Assembly (NCBI GenBank): GCA_951406725.2
Contig: OX597822.1
Span: 43,276,001 to 43,340,000 of the forward strand
From: Octopus vulgaris
Taxonomy: Eukaryota
Direction: 5' to 3'
Length of the DNA: 64,000 nucleotides
Shown here: piece by piece, positions 44,160 through 49,855 of the stretch
Numbering within the stretch: the stretch's first letter is position 1
Layout: each line of letters starts with the position of its first letter
Position numbers and translations under genes: made by a program
The notes under the pieces: generated by a model
Seen by the model: only the letters and a program-made list of their open reading frames with translations
Told to the model about the DNA's origin: nothing
The model's database searches: none

Positions 44160-45086
44160 GTAAGGAAAATTTTTTTTAAAAAATGCAGAATGCTCAAATG
44201 AAAGAAAATTTTAATAAAATGAGAAATTGATAAAATATATAAATATATATTTATTCAACCGGTTTTCGTCATTGTATGACTTGTCAAGAATATTTATGTT
44301 TTAAAAAGTTTTTTTAAAAATTAGAAAGGGGAAAAAAAGAAAATTGCATTGTTTTTTGCAAAAGAATAATGATAAAAATGTACAAAAATTAAAAAATAAG
44401 TACTCCGATACATTGTGAGTTCGTTGTGTATCTTGAGTTTTATGATTGTTCACGAAAAAATTACCTTGAGGTATTAAGATCCAAAGGGATTAAGAGCATG
44501 TGTTGTGTGGTTTAATTCAGCATGTTGGCAGGACAGGAAGTAGTAGTAATTGTGGTTCTTCAGTTCCTGTGTTGTGAGTAAGGGGAGACAACTCTTTTGA
44601 GTTCTTCAATACGGGCTCTTGGTAAAACCCAAATTATAAAATTATCATTTTAGCTTCATTTGCGTTATCTTTTTTATATAATTGCTTGTTACCTTAACTT
44701 TCAGATTTTAACACTTTATTTATATTATTTTCTAATTATATAAATCTGCATAGACAATTGCATTTCAAATTGTCATATCATTTATAATAAAAATGATAGT
44801 AATAACAACAATAGTAAAAATGATATTTAAAGAATATAAGTTTTAGCTTGAAGTGATGAATGCATGGTATCTTTATATATTTGTGTTAGTCCATCCATGA
44901 AGAGTGAGGTAGAGAAAGGAAGTTTGATCAACGAGGAGTTTGCATATTAAGTTGTGTTTGGAATTTTTCAATAAAGAGATTCTCCTTGTTAATTCTCTCC
45001 TGTGTGGTGATCCCGTCTTTACATTGGTAGAAGGGGAATATATAGAATTTGGGGTTTAAGTCTTTAGCACATGAGTCTAAGTGGTC
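44160..45086 (-). mobile_element. Penelope-like element 3' fragment (endonuclease C-terminus + 3' UTR)
   Basis: 44928-45086 translates DHLDSCAKDLNPKFYIFPFYQCKDGITTQERINKENLFIEKFQTQLNMQTPR*, homologous to the C-terminus of the 48077-49306 ORF; below the ORF-track length cutoff. Confidence 0.8.
44252..44292 (-). ncRNA. Minimal hammerhead, U3:A8 variant
   Basis: Minus strand TATTC-TTGACAA-GTCA TACAA TGAC-GAAA(A)-CCGG-TT-GAATA; one extra A in the GAAA strand. Confidence 0.55.
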
Positions 45087-45299
45087 TATATATATATATA
45101 TATAATATATATATATATATATATATATATATATATATATATATATATATATATATATATATATATATATATATATATATATATATATATATATATATAT
45201 ATATATATATATATATATATATATATATTATAAGGTTTGGAGATGATGTACAGGTATTATATATAAGAAAAAATGAAGTAATCAGATCGGATGGTTCCG

Positions 45300-45606
45300 A
45301 TTCAAAGTAAATGCAGATATGAACTGCAAGACGCAGAACGTCATATACTGCATAACCTGCCCCACGTGCAAGGAGAATTACGTAGGTGAAACTGGTAATT
45401 CTTTGTGCCAGCGAGCCAGGATCCACCGACAACATATTCGGCAGGAAGAACTACGCAAAATACCACTAAGCACACACCTAGCTACATGTGGAGAAGGAAA
45501 ATTTAAGATATTTCCCTTCTACAAGTGTCCGAAGAACGACACCTCCTTCAGGAGGAATATGGAAAAACATTTCATAGCTAAGTTCTCCCCCAAATTAAAT
45601 GGCTGA
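45300..45606 (+). pseudogene. Penelope GIY-YIG endonuclease domain fragment
   Basis: MNCKTQNVIYCITCPTCKENYVGETGNSLCQRARIH...H...EKHFIAKFSPKLN. Confidence 0.88.
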
Positions 45607-46829
45607 AACTTTACTCAACATACATTGAAGGACAAATTTTTCGATTTACAATATGATACAGTGGAACATTTAATATATGTGTGTATATATATAGGTATGT
45701 GTGTGTATGTTACCTGTTATATACACTATATTGTTTTTGCAATTTACTTGATCTTTACTTGCCAATTGTCATTGTAATTTTAACCTTCCTATGATATACA
45801 ATTTTCAAGATGGTGTAACTTGATTGTTCATTTTGATTCGATAGAAGGTGGATTTTTCTCTAATATTTCATGTGTAAGCATGTATATATATATATATAGT
45901 GACATTGAAGGACACATCTTTCGATTTACAATCTAATATAGTAGAACATTTAGGATATGTCTGTATGTGTATGTGTGTATATATATATATATATATCTGT
46001 GTGTGTATAGATATGTGTATTGCCTGTTATATACATTATATTATATTATTATCTTTATAATTTACTTCCATCTTTACCTTTTAATTGTCACTTTAATTTT
46101 AACTTTCCTATGATATACAATTTTCAAGATGGTGTAATTTGGTTATTCATTTTGAACCGATAAAAAGGTTTTTTTCAAATATTTTATGTATAAGTCTGTG
46201 TGTGTATATATATATATGTATTGGTATAAATATCAACACACAAAAATATTTTTTTCTTCTCCACTTCCTCCCTTATTTTTATTTATTTTTTATTTATTTT
46301 TTTATATTTTATTTTTTATTTTTTTATTTTTTATTTTTTATATTTTTAATTATTTTTATTTTTATATTTATTTTTATTTTTATTTTCCCTTTTCTCTTTC
46401 TTTCTCTCTCTCCTTCTCCAAACACACAGAGACACACACACACGCACACAAAACACACACGGACACACACACACACACACCTCCACAATCGATCATAGAA
46501 AGTGTGACCCCAAATGACATTTGTCCGGCCAGCCTACGCACAACACACACTCAGTGACACGAGACTGGACAGAGAGCAGAGCCAAAATTCTTAGAAAACC
46601 ACAGGAGGTCCAGTCGGCCAACGGAATAACAATACTTCTTCTTCCTTATCAGATACAAACGCGCACACACACACACACACACACACACACACACACACAC
46701 ATACACACACACATACACATACACACATATTTTCTCTGTCTCACTTCCTCCTCACCCTTTTATACTGTTTTATTCCTCCCCACCGCTAATACGAAACTAT
46801 AAAATGTTCAAATTACCCACAAGGAATTG

Positions 46830-46877
46830 ATTTGATTTGAAAAGCCCACTCGATTGGGAGAAAGCGCTAATCCGAAT
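46830..46877 (+). ncRNA. Minimal hammerhead, U3:A8 variant
   Basis: ATTTGAT-TTGAAAA-GCCCA CTCGAT TGGGA-GAAA-GCGC-TA-ATCCGAAT; palindromic AGCGCT; predicted cleavage after 46869. Confidence 0.6.
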
Positions 46878-47139
46878 GATATGATCTGAATGATATGATA
46901 TATATGTAAAAAATGTAATATATAAATAAATATCTATAAATATGAACCATCCGATCTGATTACCTCATTTTTTCTTATATATATATATATATATTTTTTT
47001 TTACTCAGCCCCTCAATCTCCCTAAATATATAGACGCGAACATTAGAAGTATAGTCGCAATTAGTTTAGTTTAGAAGAAAACGTTTGTAGCTATATATTT
47101 ATAATTTACATTCTGTTAATAATCTTTCAACTTCTGTTT

Positions 47140-47789: not shown

Positions 47790-48108
47790 TGTCCATTGAC
47801 CGAGGTTACCGTGGTCTTTTCCGTAGGCTTTTCTTTCCACGGGTAAATCTCACCTGTCCTCCCCTTTACACTTCATATTGATATTTCTGTGATAACGATC
47901 CCTATTGATCAATTTTTTTTTCCTTTCCATCTTTTTTCCTCTTCCCCTTTTTTTAAAAATTTTATTCCCCCCTTTTTTTGTCCTCTTTCTTTCCCTTTAC
48001 GATCCCTTTTGATCGAAAACCAAACCCCCTTTTTTACCCCCAAAAGAAAATCTCTACCTTGTAATTTGTCCTGTCTGTGTGCAGCCCTGTGTGGCTAATT
48101 AAGAAACA
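47790..48108 (+). mobile_element. Second copy of the LINE-3'-UTR-like repeat
   Basis: Homologous to 31320-31566; ends GCCCTGTGTGGCTAATTAAGAAAC followed by (CA)n. Confidence 0.6.
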
Positions 48109-48194
48109 TACACACACACACACACACACACACACACACACACACACATATATATATATATATATATATATATATATATATCTATCTATAATAT

Positions 48195-49306
48195 ATATAA
48201 AAGAGAATTGGAAACGATTCCTGGACGATTGTTTTATACTCTGGAATGAAAACACAGATAAACTCCTAAAATTCAAAAACCTATTGAACAGCATCAACCC
48301 AAATATACAGTTCACAATGGAATACAACCAAAAGGAGCTTCCATTCTTAGATATACTAATTAAAAAAATTAACCTTAAAATAGAAACAGACATTTTTTAC
48401 AAAGCCACAGACGCTAAACAATACCTACTTTTTGATTCATGCCACCCAAGACACACTAAAACAAACATCCCTTTCAACCTTGCAAGAAGGATATGCACAA
48501 TAGTGTCAGAACAAAATGGCAGGAACCTTAGACTACAAGAACTCAAAAACACCCTAATTGACGGACACTACCCAGCTCAACTCATAGAGGATGGGATCAG
48601 ACGTGCAACAGAAATTGACATAGAAACTTTGAGAAAAGTTCAACACAACAACACACCTTCCCCGAAAATACTGCCTTACATATCCACATACAACCCCAGA
48701 AACAAAGAAGCCTTCACCATCATCACCCAGAATTTGCCAATACTTCATAAGGACCCCAAATTAAAGGAAATTCTAAACATACATAAAATCATTAAAAACT
48801 ACAAACAACCTAAATCACTTAAAAAGATTCTCACAAAGGCAAAATTGTTTTCTGAAACTACGGATGCAAAAGTAAAAAAATGTGGTAGGCCAAACTGCGA
48901 AACATGCCCAAACTTTCTAGAAGGATCAGAATTCCTTTTCAAAGAGGGACAAAAATTAAAGATCAAATCTAATTTTACTTGTGCTTCTGAAAACATAATT
49001 TATGTCATAAGGTGCTCGGGCTGCCACCAAAACTACGTGGGGTCCACGGGACTATCACTCAGACGTAGATGCACTCTGCATCGACAACAGATTGCATTCC
49101 CAGAATACAGAATGATACCCTTTAGTGAGCATATTGAGAAATGCGCAAAGCAACTACTACCACAATTTTTAATCTTTCCATTCTATCAATGTGCTATTGG
49201 AACACCAACACAAATTAGATTAAACAAGGAAACATTCTGCATTGAAAAATATAAACCCAAACTTAACCACTTTAACATTCTTATACAGAGAAACTCACCC
49301 CATTAA
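48195..49306 (+). CDS. Penelope-like element ORF, 5'-truncated: RT C-terminus/thumb + Zn-finger linker + GIY-YIG endonuclease
   Basis: WKRFLDDCFILW, LNSINPNIQFTME, LPFLDI, YKATD..YL..S.HP, CGRPNCETC, NIIYVIRC..C..NYVGST; open for ~370 aa. The ORF-track N-terminus is microsatellite. Confidence 0.92.
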
Positions 49307-49434
49307 ATAAAGGGAAAAGAAATATAAAGCGATTATCTCCCTTATACGGGAAGAAATCGCTTATTACCTCCCCCTACCTGGAACTCTTCTTTGCACTTCA
49401 TAACGAAGACATAACACGATGTAGGTAAAGACAC

Positions 49435-49478
49435 TTGAGAAATTTGAAAAGTTAACACGAAACCGGTAATTTCTTCAA
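49435..49478 (+). ncRNA. Minimal hammerhead, U3:A8 variant, in the Penelope 3' UTR
   Basis: TTGAGAAAT-TTGAAAA-GT TAAC AC-GAAA-CCGG-TA-ATTTCTTCAA; 9-bp stem I with one bulge; predicted cleavage after 49468. Confidence 0.7.
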
Positions 49479-49855
49479 AAACTTTGTTACTGTATGAAAA
49501 GATTTTATTACATTCTTCCAACATAATGACTCAAATATATTCTTTAACCTTATAAAACAAGCCTTCTGCAGTTTTTTCACTTTTTACTATTTTCTATATA
49601 TCCAACCACGTGCTTTCACACACCAAATTTCTCACCTATATATATATAAGCAATAATAAATCTCTGAATGAGGTATAGACAGTAACTGCACGACAATGTG
49701 AAGTATATTTGCCACCTAAATATGGCTAACCATTAAGGGTGGATGCTACTGTAGCTTGTGGCCCCAGGAGAACATCTTCTCCAGCTGGTTATTGACACAC
49801 TTTCTGTGCCCTATCGGTATTTGCAAAGGGAGGTCATCCTTCCCTCGTCAGCCTG

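Follow-up and report, generated by a model that had tools for sequence, protein, structure and literature searches.

Does a hammerhead ribozyme motif whose core reads UUGANAA, with U3 paired to A8, mark the decay of single transposon copies, or is it a state that whole families have inherited? The question is raised by a 64,000-nucleotide (nt) stretch of the Octopus vulgaris genome (contig OX597822.1, positions 43,276,001 to 43,340,000 of the forward strand; called the window here), in which three Penelope-like elements (PLEs), numbered 1 to 3 and each belonging to a family of the same number, carry one such motif apiece. U3:A8 is the family-wide state in the three families. We lean, with little more than even confidence, towards reading the motifs as minimal type I hammerheads of the elements' pseudo-long terminal repeats (pLTRs) with a family-wide U3:A8 pair, which would cut weakly as dimers and would probably be aided by a protein.

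Position and structure of three hammerhead motifs

A pattern match recovered all three motifs in sense orientation behind the ends of GIY-YIG endonuclease reading frames, exactly where a first-pass annotation of the window had placed them:

44252 to 44292, minus strand: hammerhead 1, a descriptor match with U3 at 44287, A8 at 44282 and an extra A in the GAAA box
46830 to 46877, plus strand: hammerhead 2, a descriptor match with U3 at 46837, A8 at 46842 and stem III AGCGCU
49435 to 49478, plus strand: hammerhead 3, a descriptor match with U3 at 49444, A8 at 49449 and stem III ACCGGU

Motif 1 has the core UUGACAA from 44287, a stem I of 5 base pairs (bp), a stem II of 4 bp and the stem III palindrome ACCGGU, and its predicted cut falls 3' of 44257 in the register that includes the extra A. 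The core of motif 2 is UUGAAAA from 46837; its stem I is made of 3 bp, a mismatch and two further pairs, its stem II of 4 bp closed by a G-A mismatch, and H17 lies at 46869 with the predicted cut on its 3' side. Motif 3 combines a stem I of 7 bp with a stem II of 2 bp, has H17 at 49468 and is predicted to be cut after that nucleotide. Set beside the minimal type I hammerhead of Penelope elements, the core is exact with U:A in motifs 2 and 3 and has one added A in motif 1. In all three the core lies between stems I and II and stem I is open, the stem sequences varying between families, and each motif has a palindromic stem III that would permit dimers. No tertiary loop contact was identified in motifs of the window type. 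On the sense strand, about 655, 1,230 and 170 nt separate the end of the GIY-YIG frame from the motif in elements 1, 2 and 3, respectively. Assembled contigs covering motif 3 (four runs, three organism labels) had no alternative letter at 49444 or 49449 among the rows listed.

Scanning the window with a U:A pattern gave four matches, one of them an overlapping register, at just these three sites. The mean over 100 shuffled windows was 0.03 matches, a comparison biased in favour of the observation since the pattern was derived from the three sites themselves. A chance origin of the motifs was ruled out by this shuffle test together with genome counts set against a reversed-pattern control, and a non-LTR retrozyme, which consists of short non-coding tandem repeats, was rejected as the source because the motifs are single and each stands behind a coding fragment.

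Standard searches pass these motifs by, as the first-pass annotation had foreseen for CUGANGA. The canonical C:G version of the pattern had no match in the whole window, and a strict first descriptor recovered motif 3 alone. Single-strand folding gave the full hammerhead fold in none of the three monomers. Scanned against Rfam, motifs 2 and 3 matched none of the hammerhead families at E<=10, nor did the whole-window scan have a hammerhead among the 150 of 401 matches listed, where microsatellite matches to microRNA models dominate. The canonical Rfam marks, a C3:G8 core and a covariance model match, are thus absent from the window motifs (motifs 2 and 3 scanned singly, motif 1 within the whole-window scan).

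The motif in related elements and the states of its 3:8 pair

Family loci were fetched through their reading frames and not through the motif, and every set contains the window's own copy. A U:A hammerhead was found downstream in 28 of 30 family 1 loci (at 642-655 nt), in 29 of 30 family 2 loci (at 1,189-1,290 nt in the nine whose GAAA box is intact) and in 25 of 30 family 3 loci (at 130-170 nt). A Pfam GIY-YIG search returned 30 loci, reduced to 29 by removal of one host-like gene, and the motif was present in 20 of them (19 U:A, 1 A:U). Behind endonuclease ends the motif occurred in sense orientation in 103/119 cases, one of them a chance match, and in antisense in 1/119; the predicted enrichment is therefore present, the sense rate being partly built in by a descriptor that was widened after the families were known. 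Two links between locus and motif need care, as L055 is a chance G:U match and L217 picks up the A:U motif of a neighbouring element.

Full-length tandem copies have the motif on both sides of their reading frames, so the motif belongs to the pLTR. The earlier placing in a 3' untranslated region accordingly describes its downstream site and misses the second one, upstream of the frames in full-length copies. Likewise, the defects that had been ascribed to each copy are visible, and what does not hold is their reading as copy decay in the case of the extra A in the GAAA box: it is a family trait, seen in all 28 motifs found among the 30 family 1 loci. Of 604 genome-wide matches, the first 100 were listed, and 99 of these have the extra A. 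Variants of stem III (CCGG, GCGC, CATG, GTAC and longer forms) remain palindromic. In one family (L335, L323, L340-L342) the stem III palindrome goes from 6 to 8 nt and is self-complementary in most copies.

The genome search covered 2.8 billion bases in 227 contigs, with the reversed pattern as control; patterns joined the core to an ACCGGT stem III, left the stems unchecked, and counted copies with overlapping registers included. U:A gave 11,793 matches against 119 in the control, A:U 1,824 against 369, C:G 377 against 49 and G:C 181 against 79, and the U:G wobble gave 757 against 56. A with a partner other than U (724 against 908) and G with a partner other than C (364 against 355) stayed at background level. 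With an AGCGCT stem III, the pooled Y3:R8 pattern gave 3,285 matches against 71, mostly U:A among the 100 listed. A search restricted to CUGANGA would here leave out about 97% of all motifs with a C:G or U:A pair (C:G accounts for 377 of 12,170 with an ACCGGT stem III), so claims that a family has no hammerhead need variant-aware searches.

Stems are complete in the A:U and G:C motifs, which are found 180-350 nt downstream of the end of a related GIY-YIG. In one family picked by its endonuclease, A:U was present in 15 of 21 aligned copies, G:C in four (query included) and another state in two; the alignment took in 21 of 25 loci, the rest being two without a match, one with a gap and one A:U copy dropped by oversight. 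The mixture within that family may reflect a single inherited double change. A second family had A:U in 21 of 25 loci. In a C:G family all 13 parsed of 25 loci start CUGANGA when judged by eye, automatic parsing having shifted the register in nine loci and given A:U or similar. All four Watson-Crick pairs thus occur at 3:8, which points to selection on this pair of the active fold. The compensatory U3:A8 pair that the first-pass annotation had proposed for PLE hammerheads is borne out, and the 3:8 covariation across families that it had implied appears both in the genome-wide counts and in the family alignments.

The same counts bear on the possibility that U:A is neutral baggage, which a few founders acquired through mutation biased towards AT (C to T, G to A) and which was then amplified. 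Each of the two is a transition in the AT direction, and the region has 24-44% GC; U:G and C:A intermediates were amplified as well, a C:U family stands at hundreds of copies, and a 17-row tree needs just six state changes. However, A:U and G:C require transversions at both sites while their single-change intermediates are at background, and stem I, the palindrome and the remaining core positions are kept across families 1, 2 and 3, whose proteins share 44-59% pairwise identity and whose 3' regions fail to align. We consider the neutral explanation improbable, and the present data lean to Watson-Crick 3:8 states exceeding independent substitution. Some weight has to be placed on the other side. 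The C:A mismatch class is above background (373 against 64), as are pyrimidine:pyrimidine combinations (1,127 against 280, chiefly one C3:U8 family), one subfamily, whose frame of 775 amino acids (aa) is intact, is fixed for U:G, which does not fit clean covariation, and the genome counts are of copies and not of independent events.

The C3:U8 repeat (L274-L278) has a poor stem II and accounts for about 80 of the 100 matches listed first out of 1,127. No reading frame was present in the stretches fetched for the C:U family (five stretches), the ultra-short U:G motifs or the long-stem C:G family. Tandem and inverted repeats of about 359 bp, each with a canonical C3:G8 hammerhead and retrozyme-like in kind, were seen at L036-L042 and L049-L050; C:A variants of a unit similar to this repeat are tandem as well.

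Trees of the reverse transcriptase (RT) and endonuclease place families 1 and 3 in a clade with good support; its early branches carry U:A, and A:U, G:C and U:G are nested inside it. On these trees U:A is not a terminal state, and the pair has moved on to the other three states in this main clade. The young subfamily that stands for family 2 is paired with a C:G family. The approximately unbiased (AU) test rejected a tree in which the eight non-C:G rows of this genome were forced together (p=0.0097), as judged on a quick tree with two long branches, with seven motif-less rows left out and the group chosen after the first tree. Since the non-C:G rows are not one clade, there were two or more origins of U:A or one reversion, and the proposal that one lineage had fixed the swap is not supported. 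Relatives in other organisms have the same architecture as the window elements; of 90 related loci, the 26 with a match extending to the end of the endonuclease were examined, and a motif followed downstream in 11, nine of them C:G (two identical) and two U:A with a weak stem I.

We put forward only tentatively a wider reading, in which one Neptune-type radiation would have taken the 3:8 pair through all four Watson-Crick states, with U:A reached at least twice and further core changes in the youngest autonomous families. Such a radiation would serve as a mutagenesis series made by nature, pointing to selection for a throttled, protein-switched ribozyme or to conversion of the fold into a non-cutting handle.

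Known hammerheads, catalysis and insertion ends

U3:A8 in Penelope hammerheads is already published, and the window motifs add further members. The first-pass annotation had allowed that the swap might be new; it is not, because U3-A8 is given for minimal Penelope hammerheads in PMC4209133 and as a natural variant in PMC3088659. In the former (Cervera and De la Pena 2014), U3-A8 is reported from Cercyon elements of Schistosoma mansoni with about 1,300 hits, and S. mansoni rows 3 and 4 of its supplement have the cores UUGAUAAA and UUGAAAAA. These Cercyon and other metazoan PLE hammerheads resemble the motifs described here in being type I, in their short stem I, palindromic stem III and pLTR site, in occurring mostly as single motifs on truncated copies, in close inverted pairs and in the UUGANAA core. 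In the octopus, unlike in that source, the hosts are Neptune-type, U:A is the majority and not the minority state, the palindrome has 6-8 nt, and A:U and G:C families occur too. With Perreault et al. 2011 (PMC3088659) our motifs share U3-A8 covariation, the GAAA-box insertion, U4C, a 2-bp stem II and a U-U closing mismatch, whereas variants described there as rare mark, in the octopus, whole families of hundreds to thousands of copies. The Poseidon hammerhead of Anolis carolinensis (PMC11167929) is alike in its pLTR site, its tailed element and insertion ends that are not set by the cut; features of its own are C3:G8, the Poseidon clade and overlap with the start codon, G3:C8 being a laboratory mutant. 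Dimer-cleaving PLE hammerhead variants with a short palindromic stem III are credited to Lunse, Weinberg and Breaker in a review (PMC6765202). The open-licence literature returned nothing for C3U+G8A, U3A8 or A3-U8, and we do not claim that A3:U8 and G3:C8 are unpublished. By itself the U3:A8 variant adds little, being published for PLEs. What this analysis adds is the full matrix of 3:8 states, their placement on a tree and the changes to the core seen in intact young families; the related U:A, A:U, G:C, U:G and C:G families, several with intact and near-identical frames, form a natural series on the role of cleavage in retrotransposition.

According to the reading that we favour, a read-through transcript of a tandem copy would carry two motifs about 4-5 kb apart, and these would pair through their palindromes to form two active sites. 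Slow dimer cleavage, probably helped by a protein of the element, would then release unit-length RNA, and selection would retain the 3:8 pair of the active fold while tolerating low speed. U3-A8 is active in vitro and the GAAA-box insertion is argued to be tolerated (PMC3088659), Penelope-like dimers cleave with low activity (PMC4209133), and protein-assisted cleavage dependent on 3:8 pairing is described for a Penelope hammerhead (PMC11167929). The window copies themselves are probably inert, being truncated and without a compatible partner inside the window: elements 1 and 2 face apart and elements 2 and 3 differ in their palindrome, so none has a partner in cis there.

Several observations sit poorly with a working ribozyme. 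A young subfamily of family 2 has A13C (252 matches) and four frames that differ by 0-2 of 2,328 nt, and the C:G sister family of family 2 has U4C (1,172 matches) and frames that differ by 0-6 nt. To these may be added the extra A throughout family 1 and the U:G subfamily with the 775-aa frame. In folding predictions the dimer of motif 1 favours a register without a cleavable N17 (-18.5 versus -15.9 kcal/mol), cofolded dimers of motifs 2 and 3 miss the full hammerhead fold, and motif 1 is the only one to give the dimer fold. When another hammerhead was scanned by pairwise mutation, activity was rescued by the G:C swap alone and other mutants were low (PMC9901934).

The U4C family (L369, G000:C1:27840000-27849900) is made of head-to-tail 4,271-bp units with near-identical 775-aa frames and is very young. 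Copies of families other than family 2 also show position 13 changed from A to C or U (L205, L302, L379-L381).

Insertions end mostly 102-145 nt past the predicted cut in family 1 (27/30), mostly 112-136 nt past it in family 2 (29/31) and 117-180 nt past it in family 3 (26/28). Copies share 100-180 nt beyond the predicted cut, and genomic contigs break into (TA)n at 49601. Where an insertion ends is thus not set by the cut, and the predicted cut site was ruled out as the end of the element.

Insertion ends mostly 102-180 nt past the cut in families 1-3 speak for another reading, in which the hammerhead fold is kept and cutting mostly lost, the motif acting as a handle for RNA dimerisation or RT binding with selection on its shape. 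Four young autonomous families that spread with core changes outside the consensus fit this explanation as well, as do reports that catalytic mutants had no effect on in vitro insertion and that no RNA-seq reads ended at the cut (PMC11167929), and that Naiad elements spread without canonical hammerheads (PMC8557442). The 3:8 pair, however, is part of the core in its catalytic arrangement (PMC9901934), and selection on cleavage is therefore the simplest explanation of its covariation; U4C and the GAAA-box insertion are natural variants reported to be usable (PMC3088659). We therefore regard a non-cutting handle as rather doubtful.

Host elements and their surroundings

The three motifs lie in, or close to, the following features:

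44157 to 45086, minus strand: element 1, a 5'-truncated Neptune-type PLE of family 1, delimited by similarity to relatives and flanked by (TA)n tracts
44946 to 45086, minus strand: the last 47 aligned codons of the element 1 GIY-YIG, from tblastn, 55% to element 3
45090 to 45232, no strand: (TA)n microsatellite separating elements 1 and 2, seen in the sequence
45233 to 45297, minus strand: inverted short copy of the 3' end and tail of element 2, which also matches the tail of full-length relatives
45291 to 46983, plus strand: element 2, a 5'-truncated Neptune-type element of family 2, with a GIY-YIG fragment at 45298-45606 followed by a 1.4-kb 3' region
48193 to 49637, plus strand: element 3, a 5'-truncated Neptune-type element of family 3, whose frame at 48203-49306 holds the RT end, a CxxxxCxxC linker and the GIY-YIG

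All three elements are 5'-truncated and sited at (TA)n or similar tracts. Element 1, whose outer end was set by eye at the (TA)n tract, is 94.5% similar to a full-length relative with a 753-aa RT and GIY-YIG frame. The (TA)n at 45090-45232 is likely to have been an insertion target. Positions 45258-45297 match 46983-46944 at 97.5%, and an inverted copy of the element's own 3' end at its 5' side is a layout described for PLEs (PMC8557442). The usual end of family 3 corresponds to 49601 in element 3, with a tail that runs to about 49637.

Full-length relatives encode proteins of 736-775 aa with an RT (PF00078) and, at the C terminus, a GIY-YIG (PF01541), some of these matches being below the cut-off, and have a DKG motif, a cysteine linker and a CxxC inside the GIY-YIG motif. 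The linkers read CGRPNCETC in element 3, CARSNCGTC in family 1 and CGDGRCGTC in family 2. A CX2-5CxxC linker between RT and endonuclease is a mark of Neptune shared with Nematis (PMC8557442), and the hosts are called Neptune-type here on the strength of such motifs and not of named references, their marks fitting Neptune or Nematis.

Fragments of a LINE-type (long interspersed nuclear element) RT frame adjoin element 1 at 42263-43513 on the minus strand of the window. In full-length family 2 an upstream frame overlaps the start of the RT frame (L171:275-1948, plus strand, 557 codons stop to stop), for which Pfam gave no match, and a full-length copy of the C:G sister family has an overlapping upstream frame as well (L369:3858-5222, minus strand, 454 codons stop to stop). 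Animal PLEs were also met on short contigs filed under bacterial metagenome-assembled genomes (L461-L465), where host contamination is likely, and some protein homologues carry the names of bivalve symbiont proteins.

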